Source of the DNA: a virus
Lineage: Duplodnaviria; Caudoviricetes
Length of the DNA: 53,102 nucleotides
Virus record (IMG/VR): IMGVR_UViG_3300044837_000127
Span: 1-53,102 of that record
Direction: 5' to 3' (one strand)
Numbering within the stretch: the stretch's first letter is position 1; every line of letters starts with the position of its first letter. The position numbers were made by a program, and so were the translations under genes. Of the stretch, positions 2,150 through 24,828 are shown one piece after another. Below the pieces are notes generated by a model. It saw nothing but the letters and a program-made list of their open reading frames with translations. It ran no database searches and had not been told where the DNA came from.

Positions 2150-3861
2150 CACCCAGCATTCCCGCCAGCGCGATTGTCAATGTCACGCCCAACGTGATCG
2201 GTGCGGGCGGTACGGGCCTGGATCTGAACGGGCTGATTCTGACCATCACCGATTATGTTCCGGTCGGCACCGTCATGAGCTTTGCCACCGCCCAGGACGT
2301 GGCCGATTTCTTCGGGCCGCTCAGTGCGGAGGCAGCCATGGCGGCCATCTATTTCGCCGGTTTCGACGGGTCCAACATCAAGCCCGCCTCCCTGCTGTTC
2401 GTGCAGTATGTGGAAAATATCCCCGGCGTGCCGCCGTACCTTCGCAGTGGTGACGTTTCGGGCATGACGGTCGCCCAGCTCCAGGCACTCGGCTCCGGCA
2501 CGCTGGGCTTCACGATTAATGGTCGGGCGTTCACCAGCGGCACCATCAATCTGTCCGCAACCACCAGTTTCTCCAATGCCGCTGCGCTTATCCAGGCCGG
2601 CCTCGCACATTATGATGCGGTGGTGACGGGCAGCATCGCCGGCACCACGCTGACCGTTACCGCGGTCACCAGCGGCACGCTTCGGATCGGTCAGACCATT
2701 ACCGGCGCGGGCATCACCCCGGTGCGCATCGGGGCGCTCGGCACCGGCACGGGAGGGACGGGCACCTATACGATCGAAGGTGGCTCGCAAACCGTCAGCA
2801 GCACCACGATCAGCGCCGGCCAGACCATCGTTTCCTATAATTCGCAGCTCGGTTCATTCGAAGTCTTCGGCGGGACGCCCGGTGCGAACGGTGGGACCGT
2901 TTCCTATGCAACCGGAGCGCTGTCGGCCGGACTGAAACTGACCGCGGCCACGGGTGCTATCCAGAGCGCCGGCACCAGCACCATGACGCCCGCTGGCGCG
3001 ATGGATGCGGTGGTCGCCAACACCCAGAATTTCGCCAGCTTCACCACCACCTTCAAGCCAAGCGTGGCCGATATGGTCGCCTTCGCCGCCTGGGCCAACG
3101 GTCAGGACAATCGGTTCCTGTACGCCATGTGGGATGACAATATTACCGTGGCGACCGTGCAGGACGATCCGGCGACGGCGGGCTATCTGGTCGCTGCGAA
3201 CGATTATTCCGGCACGGTGCCGATCTATGACCCGCTGAACGGGCAGAATATCGCCGCCTTCGTCATGGGCACAGTGGCCAGCCTGGACTTCACCCAGACC
3301 GAAGGCCGTACCAATGTGGACTTGCGGTCCCAATCGGGACTCGCTGCCGGCGTGACCAGCGCGACCGTTCGCAATATGCTGATCGCCAATGGCTATAATT
3401 TCTATGGCTCGTTCGCGACGGCCAATGACGAATTCACCTTTTTCAATTCCGGCACCGTCAGCGGTCCGTTCGCGTGGATCGATTCCTACGTCAACCAGAT
3501 TTGGATGAACAACGGCTTCCAGCTCGCGCTGATGGTGCTGCTGACCAGCGTTCGGTCCATTCCCTATAATTCGGCGGGCTATGGTCTGATCGAGTCGGCC
3601 ATGCTGGCCCAGGTGGAAGCGGCGGTGAATTTCGGCGCCGTCCGGGCCGGGGTAACGCTGTCCGCTCTGCAGATCGCCCAGGTCAATGCGGCGGCCGGGC
3701 TCAACATCAGCGATACGATCCAGCAACGCGGCTGGTATATCCAGGTGAAGAATGCGAGCGCCGATGTTCGGGCGGCTCGTGGAAGCCCGCCGGTCACCTT
3801 CTGGTACACGGACGGCCAATCGGTCCAGTCCATCAATCTGGCGAGCGTGGAGGTCCAATAA
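2146..3861 (+). CDS. Tail sheath protein (DUF3383) with inserted Gly/Thr-rich module
   Basis: 571 aa; IPASAIVNVTPNVI, GYNFYG, WIDSYVNQIW, RSIPYN, WYTDGQSVQ. Confidence 0.9.
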   Translation: MTPSIPASAIVNVTPNVIGAGGTGLDLNGLILTITDYVPVGTVMSFATAQDVADFFGPLSAEAAMAAIYFAGFDGSNIKPASLLFVQYVENIPGVPPYLRSGDVSGMTVAQLQALGSGTLGFTINGRAFTSGTINLSATTSFSNAAALIQAGLAHYDAVVTGSIAGTTLTVTAVTSGTLRIGQTITGAGITPVRIGALGTGTGGTGTYTIEGGSQTVSSTTISAGQTIVSYNSQLGSFEVFGGTPGANGGTVSYATGALSAGLKLTAATGAIQSAGTSTMTPAGAMDAVVANTQNFASFTTTFKPSVADMVAFAAWANGQDNRFLYAMWDDNITVATVQDDPATAGYLVAANDYSGTVPIYDPLNGQNIAAFVMGTVASLDFTQTEGRTNVDLRSQSGLAAGVTSATVRNMLIANGYNFYGSFATANDEFTFFNSGTVSGPFAWIDSYVNQIWMNNGFQLALMVLLTSVRSIPYNSAGYGLIESAMLAQVEAAVNFGAVRAGVTLSALQIAQVNAAAGLNISDTIQQRGWYIQVKNASADVRAARGSPPVTFWYTDGQSVQSINLASVEVQ

Positions 3862-20385: not shown

Positions 20386-20970
20386 ATCCTTTATCGGTTT
20401 CCATTCGGCGCACGTTCTACCGGAGCGAATCGGGTAGGGGCCAATATACGGTTGGGGGGGAATTCCGGCGTTTGCGCTCTTCCCACGGGCCAGCGGGTGC
20501 AAAGGCATCCCATCGTCCGTGGTGCCCAGACATAGTAAGGGGGACGAATTGTACCGGGTGAAAGCGCCCAGCATCCGCCGGCAATGCTCCGGGTGGCGGC
20601 GCATAGGTTCCGCTCCGAAAGCGACCACCAGCCGATCGGCCGCCCCTCCGATCAGCTCCAAGGCCCGTTCATTCGCCAGAATCATGTCTTCGGTGATGCG
20701 ACCCGCTGCCAACGCCGTCCAAAGGTCGCGTGGATACGGGGTGCGCCAGCTCCACATATTACCCAGCAGAGACATGCCACCCCCGTGGTCATCGCTGGTG
20801 GTCACGGTCCGTCCGCATGTAGGGTCATCTATCAGATGGCTGGCCACGGACGGATTGGTCATCAGCCATGCGAAGACGAGCCGCGAGCCGTCCCAGCAGC
20901 GATAGAGCATCGGCCGGCACTGGGGGATGCCGTCGGCATTGAAATTGGTCAGACTGGCGCCCCGGAGCAT
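20383..20970 (-). CDS. DUF1643-family protein
   Basis: MTNPS.A...DDPT, RTPYPRDL, LCLGTT.DG.PLHPL. Confidence 0.8.
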   Translation of the reverse strand: MLRGASLTNFNADGIPQCRPMLYRCWDGSRLVFAWLMTNPSVASHLIDDPTCGRTVTTSDDHGGGMSLLGNMWSWRTPYPRDLWTALAAGRITEDMILANERALELIGGAADRLVVAFGAEPMRRHPEHCRRMLGAFTRYNSSPLLCLGTTDDGMPLHPLARGKSANAGIPPQPYIGPYPIRSGRTCAEWKPIKD

Positions 20971-23231
20971 CAGACCTTCCTATAGACTCGGCCTCGCCAG
21001 CCGCCTTCGGCCCGGATGGGCCAATCGTGCGCAAAGGGCGGCGGGGTCGACAAGATCCCTTCCACATGCCCCACCGTCCCAAAGCCGTGCGGAACCTCCA
21101 GGACCACTTCGTCATAAACCTCCATGACCGGGACCGGATAGCCGGCGGCAATCAGCGCTTTGATGCCGTGGCGCTGGATTTCCACTTCATGACCCATAAC
21201 CACGTTTTCCGTCAGCGAGCCCCCATAGGTGGACAGCCGTTGCCAGCCGGGCGCCCCGCGCTTGGGGTTGCTGTTATATCCGGAATAGCTGATGGCCAAT
21301 TCGTCCATATTACGATCGGACTGGGCGAGCCGCGGGTGCCAATAAGTCAGCGAGCGAAGCCCGCTTAACAGACCGATCGTCAGCTTGTCCGTGGTCGCAT
21401 CATAGAGAAACGGCATTCCCCGGAACGTATAGACCACGCCGGGCGACTGGAGCGCGGCGATAAAATAGCCTTCCATGCCATAGAGTTCCGCCCGTTCGCG
21501 CCGCCAGGGCGGGCCGCGCCACTGGCCACCCCAGAACTCAACGATGGCGGGATTGGCCGCACGCCACGCGAGAATCTGGGTTCGGATTACATCGTCGGGC
21601 TCTTCGGATCCGAAAGCGCGGTAACTGGGAATCCAGCCTTGGAATCCGCAATTATGAACCAGCAGATGGCCGGTGGCCGTCTGGATCGTAAATCGGTTCC
21701 GCGGCCCCGCATGTGCAATGTCGTAAACGGGCTCGCAAGGCGTCCAGCTCGCGCTGCATCGCTTGGATAGATCGTTTGTTGCCAGTATTCGCTCGGCGCG
21801 TAACAAAGCGGAGATTGCCCGGCTCATAGTTACCATCCGTTTCGATACGATCAAGCTCCAGCGCCGGTTGATCCCAGCCGTCCAGAGTGACAAGGTAGGC
21901 CAGAAATTCGCGACGTCCGTCCGTACCATTAGTCCAGGGCTCATGGACGCGAATTCCGCGTTTTCCATAGTTGGGGTGGCCCTCTGGTCGACACCGAGTA
22001 AGGCAGGCTGAAATTCGGTTAAGAAGGCGGCGTCGGTGCCCATCATCCGGCACGATGACGGCGTATTTCCAAAACATTTTTTGGTATGCGCCAGCCGCTT
22101 TTCGGGCGCATACCCCGCAGCGAGTGCTAGCCCCCTTGCGAAGATTAGAAGCCGCAACATAGTACGGTTTCGAATCGCACCCACCGCACGTAACCAAAAT
22201 CGAGCTAACGGCCCCCCACTTGCCGTATCCAACCACGGTAAGCTGGCCGAACCTGTCGCCAATGCTTGGCGGAGCATGGTGCGGTTGGAAACGAGTCGGC
22301 TTGCCGGCTTCCAAAAACCGTTCAAGAATATCAGATGATTCGGGGTCATCCCGACGCCATCCAGGCGGACGGTCTCCGCGATACCCTTTGCGACTACCCC
22401 CGCATGGCAAACCCATTCCACCCCATCCCAAAGTAAATCGGTTAGACGAACAGCCACAATATCCACGTATCCGCGGGCCGTCAACACTTGGGTTTGACGG
22501 TTGAAACAAGCAAGCTCGGAAACCTTGCCGATCTTTTGGCGGTCCGGGTGGTGCTGGCGGTACGCTGGGTCCGGGTGCGATTGCTCCCAATACCGGAGGT
22601 ACTCCGAAACCGGCACCCCCGTAATCTTACTCGCCCCCAGCAAGTAAATCGGCTTGCCAGCACGGAAGGCATCGATACGCCATTGCTCGCCCGCGAGACA
22701 GGCCAGCACCACGGCTTGCAAGCTGCTGTAATCGGTAGCGATGAAATCGTAACCATCCGCGGCGATGAACAGTGACCGGATGCAGCCGGATATGGCCAGC
22801 AGGGCGTCCCCGAAGAACCGTTCCACCATGCCCAGATCCCGCGTGGCCATAATCTCCAGCACGAAGGGGACCATTTCCACGGTCCATTCCCGGCGCCGAT
22901 CGGCCGCGCCCAGGTTTCCGCACCATGGGCAGAACGGCGCGAGCTTATGGGGGCGGAGGCATTTTTCGCACCAGACCAGCCTGGGGCCGGCCTTCGGGAG
23001 ATTTAGCGGTTGAACCGCCCCGCCCGTAGGGCGCCCTGGCTGCGTTCCGTGATGGATGATAAGGTCGCGAAGGCGGTTGTCGCGGCACGCCTGGTTATCC
23101 ATCGCGTAGAGTTTTTTAACGCTTGCGGAGGCGGTTAGCTGACGGAGCTCCAGTACCCGCCGCACGTCCGCCGGCAAGTCGAGTCGCTCCAGAGCCGCGC
23201 TTACCGTTTCGCTGTCCAGAGAGGCTATCAT
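20970..23231 (-). CDS. Family A DNA polymerase, C-terminal polymerase part, intein-containing
   Basis: QPLNLPK, motif A DYSSLQAVVLA, motif B RQKIGKVSELA|CGFQG split by the intein, YGGSLTEN, motif C VYDEVV. Confidence 0.9.
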   Translation of the reverse strand: MIASLDSETVSAALERLDLPADVRRVLELRQLTASASVKKLYAMDNQACRDNRLRDLIIHHGTQPGRPTGGAVQPLNLPKAGPRLVWCEKCLRPHKLAPFCPWCGNLGAADRRREWTVEMVPFVLEIMATRDLGMVERFFGDALLAISGCIRSLFIAADGYDFIATDYSSLQAVVLACLAGEQWRIDAFRAGKPIYLLGASKITGVPVSEYLRYWEQSHPDPAYRQHHPDRQKIGKVSELACFNRQTQVLTARGYVDIVAVRLTDLLWDGVEWVCHAGVVAKGIAETVRLDGVGMTPNHLIFLNGFWKPASRLVSNRTMLRQALATGSASLPWLDTASGGPLARFWLRAVGAIRNRTMLRLLIFARGLALAAGYAPEKRLAHTKKCFGNTPSSCRMMGTDAAFLTEFQPALLGVDQRATPTMENAEFASMSPGLMVRTDVANFWPTLSLWTAGINRRWSLIVSKRMVTMSRAISALLRAERILATNDLSKRCSASWTPCEPVYDIAHAGPRNRFTIQTATGHLLVHNCGFQGWIPSYRAFGSEEPDDVIRTQILAWRAANPAIVEFWGGQWRGPPWRRERAELYGMEGYFIAALQSPGVVYTFRGMPFLYDATTDKLTIGLLSGLRSLTYWHPRLAQSDRNMDELAISYSGYNSNPKRGAPGWQRLSTYGGSLTENVVMGHEVEIQRHGIKALIAAGYPVPVMEVYDEVVLEVPHGFGTVGHVEGILSTPPPFAHDWPIRAEGGWRGRVYRKV
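21651..22508 (-). mobile_element. Intein (286 aa) in polymerase motif B
   Basis: Starts CFNRQTQVLT, block B MTPNH, block F VYDI, ends LVHN followed by Cys+1. Confidence 0.9.
21652..22416 (-). CDS. HNH-type homing endonuclease nested out of frame inside the intein (start uncertain: ATG 22416 or TTG 22314)
   Basis: GDRFGQLTV, C..C, NLRKG.STRCG.C, RC...HPNYGKRGIRV..W, LDRIETDGNYEPGNLRFVT...N..NKR. Confidence 0.85.
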   Translation of the reverse strand: MGLPCGGSRKGYRGDRPPGWRRDDPESSDILERFLEAGKPTRFQPHHAPPSIGDRFGQLTVVGYGKWGAVSSILVTCGGCDSKPYYVAASNLRKGASTRCGVCARKAAGAYQKMFWKYAVIVPDDGHRRRLLNRISACLTRCRPEGHPNYGKRGIRVHEPWTNGTDGRREFLAYLVTLDGWDQPALELDRIETDGNYEPGNLRFVTRRANTGNKRSIQAMQRELDALRARLRHCTCGAAEPIYDPDGHRPSAGS

Positions 23232-23884
23232 GCCTTTTTCGCTCGGTTGGTGGCCTGTAGTGTCTCCCGGCGCCGCGCGATGTAGTCGGCATAGCGGTCT
23301 GGATCGGCACGCAAGTCCACCCAGAATTGCTTAATCCCACGGCTGGCGGCTTCGGCCCTTTGTCGGACGTCTCCCTTGGCGCGCGCGGCCAACATTCGTT
23401 CTTGCTGGAGCGCTTTGAACGCCGGGTCTTCGGCGCATCGTCTTTTCAGAGTGGCGGAAATAGTGTCGAAAATTTGCCGCTTGCGCTTCGGGCTTCGGGA
23501 CGCCCAGACCCCCCGCGTGACTTCCGAAGACCGAAGACTATAGGCGGCATAAAATGTCGGGTCGGTACTAAGCCGGTGCCGTAAAGCGATGGGGCCGGTC
23601 AATGCGTCATAGTCTCCGCCCGGCGAAATGTTGTATCCGTCCGACCGGTCCGCGCTATTGAGCATGGCGATCAACGATATCTCTGCGGCTTTTGCGGCAA
23701 CAAGGTCTGGATGAGAAGAAACAATTTCCATCGTGAAGGCGTCCCGTCCGTATTTCTTCATGGCTCGATAAAGCGGATGAGCCTTTTTGCACTTTCGATG
23801 TTGACGCCAGCGTTCTTTGGGATTGTTGGTGATCCCCACGTACGCTTTGCCTGTTGGTCCCAGGATGACATAGAGATAGGTCAT
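23228..23884 (-). CDS. Free-standing GIY-YIG homing endonuclease splitting the polymerase
   Basis: YLYVI...AYVGIT....RWRQH...LYRAMKKYG..F...E....GYNISPGG. Confidence 0.85.
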   Translation of the reverse strand: MTYLYVILGPTGKAYVGITNNPKERWRQHRKCKKAHPLYRAMKKYGRDAFTMEIVSSHPDLVAAKAAEISLIAMLNSADRSDGYNISPGGDYDALTGPIALRHRLSTDPTFYAAYSLRSSEVTRGVWASRSPKRKRQIFDTISATLKRRCAEDPAFKALQQERMLAARAKGDVRQRAEAASRGIKQFWVDLRADPDRYADYIARRRETLQATNRAKKA

Positions 23885-23919: not shown

Positions 23920-24828
23920 CTAAAATGGGATATCGTCCGCTAAATCTTCATCATATTGCTGACTGAAGCCGTAACCGCCGGCACCGTTGGAGCGAAACGT
24001 CGGACCGTGCATCCTGCCCTGAATCCACCCCACAAGCGCTTGCACTTGGGACGGGCCGATACCGCCGGTTATCTCGCGGCATTCGGCGCCGTAGCGCTCC
24101 AGCACCGCCTCCAGCACCGCCCGGCAATCCAGCACCGCCGGCCGGTCAATGCCGATGCCTCGCCAATTCATTTCCTGATTGATCTGCCAGATTTCCAGCT
24201 CGCTGGGTGACATGGGCGGCATGGCGGAGCTGGCCGCTTGCTCCGTTTGCACGTCCCGATCGCAATAGAGGCATAGCCGTTCAAAATCTTCGGGGTCATC
24301 CTCCGGCCGGATCCGGCGCCGGCTATCGGCCTTGGTAGGGTTGCGGGGCACGCTGAATTTATCCAGCAGCCGCTTACCTTCCTTATCCTTCCGGGTTTCC
24401 AGCCGCAGCACGTCGCCCAGCGCGTCCAGCTTGCCGGGGAGGCTGTTGACGCGAGCCGTGGCCATGCTGCAGCGCTGGACTCCGGGAGGGAGCGGCGGCC
24501 ATCCGTACCGGGGAACGCAAACGTTCGCCCAGATCAGCCGTTCGAACATGGCGTTATGCGATTCGAGCTCCGCCCCTGGGCGCGTGACGTGGATGAACAA
24601 ATCTTCGGGCGGTGGCAGATGGGGACCAAGGCGCCGGATGCCTTTGCCGTCCAGCAGATCATAAGAGCCGGTCAGCACTTCGGTGGTTGGATGCTCGCTA
24701 TATGCGGGGGCCCCGACCGACTCCAGACCCTTTTTCCGGGCACCCTCCGGCATCCGCCATTTCTGGGTTGTTTCGTCCCATATATGGCCGGCTTCCGAAT
24801 AGGTTTCAAAGTCCAGGGCTGGGCGCAT
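23920..24828 (-). CDS. DNA polymerase A N-terminal 3'-5' exonuclease part
   Basis: ExoI DFETYS, ExoII HNAMFER, ExoIII YCDRDV, MNWRGIGID; ends DDIPF. Confidence 0.85.
   Translation of the reverse strand: MRPALDFETYSEAGHIWDETTQKWRMPEGARKKGLESVGAPAYSEHPTTEVLTGSYDLLDGKGIRRLGPHLPPPEDLFIHVTRPGAELESHNAMFERLIWANVCVPRYGWPPLPPGVQRCSMATARVNSLPGKLDALGDVLRLETRKDKEGKRLLDKFSVPRNPTKADSRRRIRPEDDPEDFERLCLYCDRDVQTEQAASSAMPPMSPSELEIWQINQEMNWRGIGIDRPAVLDCRAVLEAVLERYGAECREITGGIGPSQVQALVGWIQGRMHGPTFRSNGAGGYGFSQQYDEDLADDIPF

Follow-up and report, generated by a model that had tools for sequence, protein, structure and literature searches.

A putative nuclease gene nested out of frame in the intein of a phage family-A DNA polymerase

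Two reading frames in one polymerase intein

The window, by which we mean the whole stretch of 53,102 nucleotides (nt) that was analysed (IMG/VR record IMGVR_UViG_3300044837_000127), is a complete 53.1-kb virus record from a soil metagenome, with terminal repeats and the usual gene set of a tailed phage. On its minus strand, a gene for a family-A-type DNA polymerase contains a class-1 intein, and the centre of this intein contains a second open reading frame (ORF), in the -1 frame relative to the polymerase, that may encode a nuclease of its own. A first-pass annotation of the window, made from the letters alone, had proposed just such an arrangement: an HNH-type homing endonuclease gene that invaded a mini-intein out of frame, in which both frames stay open and the nuclease is produced as a protein of its own. 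The features on which the argument turns are listed below; group 1 is a set of relatives defined in the next section, and pLDDT (predicted local distance difference test) is the confidence score of the structure models.

20970-23231, minus strand: polymerase-part ORF of 753 codons with the intein inside (ORF list and PHROG matches)
22509-23231, minus strand: N-extein, ending ...KIGKVSELA (phrog_17 and phrog_10285, DNA polymerase)
21651-22508, minus strand: class-1 intein, 286 codons, in the polymerase frame (boundary residues kept in 96 resolved group-1 relatives; Foldseek intein/Hint matches)
20970-21650, minus strand: C-extein, starting CGFQGW... (phrog_7766, DNA polymerase, E 6.8e-20)
22239-22508, minus strand: predicted N-terminal part of the Hint domain, intein residues 1-90, with Cys1, WDGVEW and TPNH (pLDDT 97-98; position-3 variability to about codon 65)
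21747-22238, minus strand: polymerase-frame linker, intein residues ~91-254, stop-free, otherwise apparently unconstrained and predicted to be disordered (model and codon phase)
21651-21746, minus strand: predicted C-terminal part of the Hint domain, intein residues 255-286, VYDI..GPRNRF..VHN (pLDDT 97-98 at 261-286)
21652-22416, minus strand: nested putative nuclease ORF, -1 frame, 254 codons plus TAA (176 database proteins of similar length; conserved start)
21712-22275, minus strand: conserved core of the nested protein, residues 48-235, predicted as a beta module with a four-cysteine zinc ribbon followed by a beta-beta-alpha nuclease-like domain (model and invariant residues)

The polymerase frame matches PHROG families of DNA polymerases (phrog_17, E 5.6e-27; phrog_10285, E 1.4e-24; phrog_7766, E 6.8e-20), and also one family labelled endonuclease that spans the intein. 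Pfam DNA_pol_A scores 26.4 bits on this ORF, under its cut-off of 34.3, and the host genes of relatives are annotated as polA or DNA polymerase I. The intein, which the first-pass annotation had placed correctly, has the junctions ...KIGKVSELA/CFNRQ...LLVHN/CGFQGW... (the slash marks the splice point here and below). Its Cys1 codon is TGT at 22508-22506, its terminal His-Asn codons occupy 21656-21651 (AAT at 21653-21651) and the +1 Cys codon is TGC at 21650-21648. It sits in the conserved family-A segment R-x-x-G-K...G-[FY]-x-G, which we take to be polymerase motif B. The residues of a class-1 intein are in place (C1, T55-P-N-H58, H285-N286/C), and all 52 aligned inteins share C1, T55, H58, H285 and N286. 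In fact, a single ORF runs from 23231 to 20970 straight through the intein, and the layout is thus not that of a split intein or fractured gene, in which the host gene lies in two ORFs at the intein. With its catalytic residues intact and conserved inside an essential replication gene, the intein probably splices.

Pfam and NCBIfam searches with both intein frames returned neither a Hint nor an HNH match. Structure modelling was more telling. In a model of the intein built with the 52 aligned inteins, residues 1-90 and 261-286 are predicted with pLDDT 97-98 as the Hint fold that the first-pass annotation had expected in this frame. Confidence is 78 at residues 251-260, and it lies below 50 over most of residues 95-241, where the model has no secondary structure. 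When the model was compared with the PDB by Foldseek, the first 45 listed rows (ranks 1-46) were all intein, Hint, BIL, Vint or hedgehog structures, including 7cfv, 6qaz, 1mi8, 2in8 and 4kl5, with probabilities of 0.54-1.00 and modest E values (2.5e-3 to 0.4). The polymerase-frame centre would therefore be a disordered linker, flanked by two Hint halves that are predicted with confidence.

In the -1 frame, each codon starts at position 3 of a polymerase codon. No stop interrupts this frame from 22590 until a TAA at 21654-21652. This stop is formed within the CA-TAA-T of the intein's own His-Asn codons, as had been read from the sequence at first, and the proposed ATG start (22416-22414) is supplied by the Glu-Trp codons of WDGVEW. 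All the motifs first reported for this frame (GDRFGQLTV, CxxC, YGKRGIRV and LDRIETDGNYEPGNLRFVT) are found in it. It matches phrog_374, labelled HNH endonuclease, with E 6.3e-25, as well as three other nuclease families of PHROG, two of them also labelled HNH endonuclease (E 1.6e-12 and 3.9e-11) and one endonuclease VII (E 0.0036). The encoded protein has 176 database relatives at E no higher than 1e-5, mostly of 240-260 residues and 45-65% identical among the 120 listed, and Met1-Gly2 is nearly invariant in an alignment of 24 relatives that were called independently. The polymerase-frame centre is free of stops and shows no nuclease motif, just as the first-pass annotation had stated. Thus, the canonical layout with an in-frame endonuclease is not what is found here: the centre of the polymerase frame appears disordered and unconstrained in sequence, and the nuclease homology lies in the -1 frame.

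Frame offset and codon-phase variability among relatives

A first search with the polymerase found two viral contigs with polymerases 49% and 29% identical, both of which carry the nested ORF in the same frame. For a wider sample, the alignment of 24 nested proteins was used to collect 49 genome loci and 80 of the 296 relatives present in one viral collection, and the frames of these relatives were assigned by tblastn anchoring. Loci with a nuclease match of at least 36% identity, the window included, make up group 1. In all 100 of them the host frame (+1 relative to the nuclease) has no stop over the match, in host ORFs of 315-1280 aa, at a GC content of 0.39-0.65, and the third frame contains 5-38 stops. 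Inteins could be resolved in 96 of the 100 and measure 276-386 aa; they share Cys1, WDGxxW at +26 (rarely +27), TP[DN]H, VYD..GPRNRF and a terminal HN/C or HN/S. The first-pass annotation had considered that homologs might all carry the nuclease in frame. Instead, the same offset recurs in 100 of 100 group-1 loci, and the nuclease is in frame with the polymerase in 0 of 128 classified loci. A search for longer, fused in-frame proteins gave one 447-aa protein and none of polymerase length, which by the tool's own rating is weak evidence.

An offset of this kind could in principle be created by an assembly or sequencing artefact, that is, by two compensating indels that put an HNH domain, in frame at first, out of step with the intein, and the first-pass annotation had called for a check of exactly this. 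The window does come from a metagenome assembly. A second assembly of the only public run containing it yields a 52,736-base contig that is identical over 21400-22800, without an indel and at a depth of 157; this run is probably the window's own source, so that the comparison is not independent and checks the assembler rather than the sample. Yet the same offset is present in 100 related loci from separate samples and from cultured phages such as SETP3, and codon-phase variability switches along the intein across its relatives (see below). The dual-frame layout is not an assembly error, and we regard the chance of an artefact as negligible.

Selection was measured as nucleotide diversity by codon phase along the intein, in 76 representatives (group-1 inteins below 85% nucleotide identity, again with the window included). 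Diversity over intein codons 1-65 is highest at polymerase position 3 (0.53-0.65). Across the windows that cover codons 71-259, the peak moves to nuclease position 3, equivalent to polymerase position 2, with values of 0.48-0.71 compared with 0.17-0.52 in the other two phases, and over the last 30 or so codons (~255-286) it returns to polymerase position 3. This switching implies that the splicing blocks are constrained as polymerase-frame protein and the centre, over some 190 codons, as the nested protein. Judged by this variability, purifying selection acts on the nuclease frame, as the first-pass annotation had suggested one should look for in homologs, and the phase pattern implies a ratio of non-synonymous to synonymous change (dN/dS) far below 1 in that frame. 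In the polymerase-frame translation of the centre, the absence of stops is the only constraint visible in these sequences.

Is this absence more than chance would give? The expectation was obtained by permuting synonymous codons of the nuclease frame. It amounts to 2.88 host-frame stops per locus, with a mean probability of 0.049 that a locus has none, yet all 76 representatives have 0; in the remaining frame, 10.6 stops were observed and 11.2 expected. The nuclease core, for its part, is stop-free in 74 of 76. Both frames thus appear to be kept open, in line with the initial proposal. One caution weighs on the permutation figures: the loci share descent, and the figures are not independent probabilities. 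Ordinary synonymous sites of the same region are nonetheless near saturation.

The two representatives with one stop each inside the nested core (L067 and L091) may be decaying copies or contain sequencing errors. They bear on a second alternative, in which the whole locus is a decaying canonical intein: an in-frame HNH domain would have been knocked out of frame to become a pseudogene, and the need for polymerase alone would keep the host frame open. Selection on the polymerase would indeed suffice to keep that frame free of stops. However, it would not explain a nuclease frame that is intact in 74 of 76 representatives and whose third position is the most variable over ~190 codons, the pattern of purifying selection. 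Nor would it explain why the start and the leader on the first splicing block stay open beyond expectation: over the 40 Hint-N codons of the overlap, 72 of 76 representatives are without a stop in the nested frame, against 48% expected; an upstream control of about 31 codons is stop-free in 14 of 76, against 14% expected. In addition, no in-frame, ancestor-like form turned up among the 128 classified loci or in the search for longer proteins. Decay is thus highly improbable.

The arrangement also exists in a second register. In 27 mostly Firmicutes-type loci (L101-L130, for example L101 at 2182-3108), an intein of 309-311 residues lies at the same polymerase site, GKxxELA/CGYGG. The related nuclease that it contains is read in the other alternative frame (polymerase = nuclease frame +2), and the phase switch is the same. 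Host-frame stops in 22 representatives of this group number 0, against 8.76 expected.

Start site and candidate expression signals

Two further features, both overprinted on the first splicing block, concern the expression of the nested gene.

22422-22430, minus strand: Shine-Dalgarno (SD)-like TGGGATGGG from Trp-Asp-Gly codons, 6-14 nt before the ATG (anti-SD duplex energy)
22456-22484, minus strand: sigma-70-like promoter candidate in Hint-N codons, with TTGACG (22484-22479), a 17-nt spacer and TATTGT (22461-22456) (consensus scan and synonymous-site excess)

The first-pass annotation had offered three routes to the nested protein: an internal start at ATG 22416, a start at TTG 22314, or a -1 slip at GGT-TTT-TGG near 22314. 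Conservation backs the first of them. The start is made from the last base of the codon preceding the second Trp of WDGxEW and the TG of that Trp, and it reads ATG in 59 of the 76 representatives, GTG in 13, TTG in 3 and CTG in 1 (ATG or GTG in 72 of 76). The nearest upstream stop in the nested frame lies at a median of 21 nt (interquartile range 3-57), often at 0-3 nt, and the ORF measured from the conserved start is 238-261 aa long in 70 of 76. The TTG at 22314 has no such backing from conservation.

The slip at GGT-TTT-TGG belongs to a broader alternative, in which programmed -1 frameshifting would produce a fusion of N-extein, Hint-N and nuclease instead of a protein with its own start. 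Such a fusion is physically possible in the window, where the -1 frame is open for 210 nt upstream of the ATG. But the proposed heptamer is non-canonical and not conserved, no conserved slippery heptamer exists among the representatives (any X_XXY_YYZ occurs in the zone in 9 of 76 loci, at scattered positions), and a stop lies 0-57 nt upstream of the conserved ATG or GTG in most relatives. The near invariance of M1 and G2 in the 24 independently called relatives also argues for a dedicated start. We therefore consider frameshifting very unlikely. Taken with the frame-specific selection above, a real, selected and separately encoded gene, nested in a functional intein, is very likely what lies here.

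How would ribosomes find this start? In relatives, the Trp-Asp-Gly codons yield an SD-like TGGGAYGG whose anti-SD duplex energy is -7.09 kcal/mol, against -2.78 kcal/mol at control positions. Synonymous resampling gives -6.77 against the observed -7.09, which indicates that the SD-likeness comes from the Trp-Asp-Gly motif itself and not from codon choice; a codon bias towards a stronger Shine-Dalgarno sequence was accordingly rejected. As a separate observation, A is found at intein nt 78 (window 22431, codon 26 position 3) in 46 of 74 loci against 19.8 expected. In many loci, this A gives rise to a further ATG in the same frame, five codons ahead of the main start and often followed by a stop.

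The promoter candidate ends 40 nt before the nested ATG. Evidence for it comes from synonymous sites of the first splicing block. Leu9 is encoded by TTG in 50 of 64 loci, against 16% in host usage. At intein nt 25, 60 of 74 loci have T, where host usage predicts 16.7 and the inteins' own usage 33.0; at nt 48, 52 of 74 have T (12.4 and 15.4 predicted, respectively), which makes this the top synonymous site under the stricter background of the inteins' own usage (z 10.7). A at nt 51 occurs in 34 of 74 loci, against 8.5 expected from host usage. Scored against TTGACA-17-TATAAT, the loci match at 8.77 of 12 positions on average (6.92 expected), 53 of 74 of them at 9 or more, and SETP3 has TTGACC-17-TATTAT at this place. 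Several results speak against a promoter. In the window region, the consensus scan found 2 sites where 1.8 are expected by chance; the evidence is pooled, and per locus 19% of synonymous resamples score equally well; the second-register group has no such signal (6.33 against 6.28 expected); and other synonymous sites (nt 9, 147 and 162) are biased too. For our part, we see an about even chance that an internal promoter overprinted on the first splicing block drives the nested gene. At one of the other biased sites, nt 9 (window 22500), C stands at position 3 of codon 3 in 51 of 74 loci, against 20.8 expected.

The nested protein, its spread and its place among inteins

The model of the nested protein has a mean pLDDT of 79.5, with 88-98 over residues 50-215 and values below 50 over residues 1-26, which are overprinted on Hint-N. 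Its first part is predicted as a beta module in which four invariant cysteines form a zinc ribbon, with weak COX5B-like similarity (E 0.019). In the C-terminal domain, the predicted order is a strand (187-190), a loop, a second strand (202-205) and a helix (207-233). Asp189, Arg190, Tyr197 in the loop, Asn201 and Phe204 are invariant, and Asn210 is kept in 75 of 76 representatives. In the model, this is the beta-beta-alpha layout of His-Me (HNH) nucleases minus the histidine that defines them.

The first-pass annotation had spoken of a clear HNH-type endonuclease and had expected structure prediction to recover HNH in the -1 frame. The match to PHROG families of HNH endonucleases stands, and the model suggests a beta-beta-alpha order. 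The protein is, however, no textbook HNH nuclease, as the first His is replaced by an invariant Arg, and neither Foldseek nor the Pfam and PDB profile searches recognised HNH in it. PacI offers a possible parallel. This enzyme has no catalytic His; a tyrosine in the inter-strand loop is used instead, and a single Asp and a single Asn bind the metal, according to the sections consulted of PMC5714182 and PMC4081073. The nested protein likewise has no catalytic His, a loop Tyr, an Asp and an Asn that could hold a metal, and Cys4 zinc site(s), and its invariant Asp/Tyr/Asn pattern would by analogy fit a PacI-like mechanism. PacI differs in being a restriction enzyme, not a homing one, and the two show no sequence match and only a weak structural match (Z 4.5).

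Several observations count against a nuclease, and some of them favour an alternative in which the nested gene is real and selected but encodes a protein that binds specific DNA sequences and does not cut them, be it a regulator or a helper that recruits another nuclease. Arg190 takes the place of the HNH-defining His after Asp189 in 76 of 76 representatives. HNH remains unseen in profile searches: Pfam HNH_3 matches 1 of 24 family members (E 0.085) and 0 of 41 domain sequences, NCBIfam gives no match, and PDB sequence profiles with the nested protein return only the COX5B zinc ribbon (E 0.019) and a synthetic helix. Foldseek with the nested-protein model finds nothing at E no higher than 0.001. 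In a wide VIA-align comparison the best Z is 4.9, to Tudor/SH3-like barrels over residues 43-99, and the match to PacI (3m7k_A) has Z 4.5 and a root-mean-square deviation of 3.8 over 87 residues; both lie below the level that the tool treats as meaningful. In the ESM Atlas, the nearest clusters are viral hypothetical proteins, and the named leads (I-HmuI_NUMOD-like, NUMOD3 and AP2) all score below 0.9. The domain family is large (97,416 cluster representatives at E no higher than 1e-3), and in long phage proteins (P0134, P0160 and P0166) the domain occurs in 2-4 tandem copies that alternate with helix-turn-helix-like modules, an arrangement that would fit a DNA-binding role too. In addition, His-less His-Me fingers that lost catalysis exist, as described in the portion consulted of Jablonska et al. 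2017 (PMC5714182).

The conserved residues speak against this alternative. Asp189, the loop Tyr197, Asn201 and Asn210 are invariant or nearly so, and in PacI Asp, Asn and a loop Tyr do the work in place of His, to judge from the passages on this enzyme in PMC5714182 and PMC4081073. Moreover, some of the tandem copies have degenerated at exactly Asp-Arg and Tyr whereas others keep them, as would be expected of catalytic residues. Finally, the precise presence and absence of the element in polymerases that are 98% identical (see below) calls for a homing activity. A DNA-binding protein without catalysis thus seems unlikely to us, and we lean, with some reserve, towards the nested product being an active homing nuclease.

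The element is found in 166 records of cultured phages, of which 145 are Salmonella phages and 11 Escherichia phages, the others including phages of Vibrio, Pseudomonas and enhanced biological phosphorus removal (EBPR) systems. In the annotated records listed, only a polymerase or hypothetical-protein feature lies under the nested match. Its distribution among Jerseyvirus relatives is that of a homing gene, sporadic and precise. Salmonella phage SETP3 (L133, 981-4079) has a 299-residue intein at RQIGKA/C...VAHN/CELGLGYEGG with an intact nested ORF of ~247 residues, and phage skrot lacks the element precisely, with the junction RQIGKA/CELGLGY and exteins 98.1% identical to those of SETP3. The helicase of SETP3, gp34, is separately annotated with a Hint domain.

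Within group 1, three neighbouring insertion points were seen: GKxxELA/CG[FY]xG, which is that of the window; GK[TPVN]/[CS]ELxLG[YF]G (for example in L086), to which the SETP3 junction RQIGKA/CELGLGYEGG is related; and GKVA/CLALGYG (for example in L012). These sequences suggest either shifts of the site or several invasions. One distant polymerase, that of L002 (2-1018, 858-1643 and 1582-3393), contains a second, fractured intein in three different frames: a stop closes the ORF of N-extein and N-intein, next comes a related nuclease ORF, and the C-intein with the C-extein has its own ATG. As far as the consulted text of Dassa et al. 2009 (PMC2677866) goes, this is their "fractured gene" layout, here with the same nuclease family.

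The window polymerase is broken in yet another way, upstream of the ORF with the intein.

23920-24828, minus strand: exonuclease part of the family-A-type DNA polymerase (ORF and library matches)
23228-23884, minus strand: free-standing GIY-YIG homing-endonuclease gene (Pfam PF01541, E 7e-11)

The GIY-YIG gene lies between the exonuclease part (23920-24828) and the polymerase part (20970-23231), which in the relative L001 form one ORF of 1068 residues. As no intein halves flank this break, it resembles intein-less fractured genes such as Aeh1 nrdA.

How does the nested arrangement compare with inteins already described? Canonical inteins with an in-frame HNH domain were reportedly set out by Dalgaard et al. 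in 1997. They resemble our locus in combining a Hint splicing domain with a nuclease of the HNH superfamily, but their nuclease is part of the intein polypeptide, whereas here it would be encoded in a separate frame and is in frame in 0 of 128 loci. The locus has instead the traits of non-canonical inteins with out-of-frame endonucleases, namely an ORF in another frame, an open host frame and purifying selection as read from codon phase. As such inteins appear in preprints of 2025-2026, the arrangement is not unprecedented.

The closest counterparts are the actinobacteriophage inteins of Gosselin, Arsenault & Gogarten (bioRxiv 10.1101/2025.01.02.630785). The portions of the preprint consulted describe inteins whose endonuclease is encoded out of frame or on the opposite strand, and an endonuclease VII-like gene "in reading frame 3" is called a first report by its authors. 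Strand, frame offset and the position of the ORF between the splicing blocks are the same as in the window, the intein-frame centre is likewise without recognisable structure, and the origin proposed there is a free-standing endonuclease gene that invaded an intein. The nuclease differs, being endonuclease VII-like there and of the phrog_374 type with Asp-Arg...Tyr...Asn...Asn here, and so do the hosts, which are DNA polymerase III alpha, minor capsid, terminase and thymidylate synthase genes there and a family-A polymerase here. The portions of its main text contain no analysis of start codon, promoter or codon phase.

A cyanobacterial dnaX intein with an out-of-frame LAGLIDADG gene is treated by Phillips, DeSimone & Gogarten, who credit the idea to Gorbalenya 1998 (bioRxiv 10.64898/2026.09.14.751524, in the part consulted). 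It too is an overlapping ORF in an intein, with low dN/dS in the nuclease frame, a relaxed intein frame and a proposed secondary invasion of a mini-intein. That case concerns a LAGLIDADG nuclease in a cellular gene, whereas ours concerns a His-Me-finger-like protein encoded within a phage polymerase gene, and its two lineages differ in frame register. ShiLan, an insertion in a mycobacteriophage DNA methylase that hides an out-of-frame HNH (Arsenault et al. 2025, PMC11855218, in the sections consulted), shares with the window an out-of-frame HNH-type ORF in an open host gene, a stop in the last bases of the insertion and an open question about the translation route. However, ShiLan has no splicing domain and is thought to be retained in the protein, whereas canonical Hint blocks flank the ORF here, and it has no detectable ribosome-binding site, whereas an SD-like sequence and a promoter-like element are present here. 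The fractured genes of Dassa et al. 2009 (PMC2677866, as far as consulted) also have a free-standing endonuclease gene inside an intein and a 3' overlap with the downstream intein part, and the same evolutionary model was drawn for them; there, the host gene lies in two ORFs and the nucleases are GIY-YIG or Vsr-like, whereas the host frame is continuous here. In the literature covered, which included parts of PMC8425127 and did not extend to subscription journals and supplements, we found nothing on this polymerase intein family, nor on an ORF nested in the intein of a family-A polymerase or in Jerseyvirus polymerases. The polymerase intein family with its nested putative nuclease is thus an addition to a known but rare arrangement, and its breadth, its two registers, its His-less nuclease-like domain and its candidate overprinted signals are what is distinctive.

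Sequence comparison and structure models thus support the core of the initial proposal, that is, a Hint domain in the polymerase frame, a -1 nuclease gene in its centre, both frames open and the nuclease made as a separate protein. The best explanation, and a quite probable one in our view, is a mobile two-part element in a phage family-A polymerase that consists of a class-1 intein and a nuclease gene in its -1 frame. The two Hint halves would rejoin the polymerase by splicing, and the ~165-residue linker between them would need only to be free of stop codons. The nuclease gene would occupy the -1 frame of this linker and extend into both Hint halves. A transcript from the sigma-70-like TTGACG-17-TATTGT (22484-22456) on the first splicing block may then be translated from ATG 22416, with the SD-like Trp-Asp-Gly codons ahead of it, into a separate protein of ~254 residues, a zinc-ribbon/beta module joined to a His-Me-finger-like domain without the usual histidine. 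Presumably, this protein cuts intein-less polymerase alleles and so spreads the whole element.

It is tempting to go further. The nested gene may have no regulatory DNA of its own, its whole cassette of promoter, SD sequence and start being overprinted on the codons of the splicing block: Val-Leu-Thr would supply TTGAC, x-Ile-Val TATnnT, Trp-Asp-Gly GGGAYGG and x-Trp the ATG. The intein and the nuclease could then be stable and ancient partners rather than a transient intermediate, a partnership that arose in both alternative frames, works by a His-less, PacI-like tyrosine mechanism and is spreading through the family-A polymerases of many phage groups. We offer this joint reading tentatively, and would put its chances somewhat below even.

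Gene callers report the polymerase only, with the consequence that a conserved protein of ~250 residues is missing from much-used records of Salmonella and E. coli phages. This exposes a general blind spot of annotation. Since some carriers can be cultured on laboratory hosts, the expression of an overprinted gene, cutting without the histidine and the tolerance of a ~165-residue linker become directly testable. Inteins are usually taught as one polypeptide in which a splicing domain is fused to a homing nuclease. Nucleases in a separate frame, of which few families are on record, put to the test the view that inteins originated from the invasion of mini-inteins by free-standing nuclease genes. 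In fact, a large and old family that reaches polymerases down to 29% identity, occupies both alternative frames and includes one fractured relative would bring intermediate stages of this invasion model together within a single gene.

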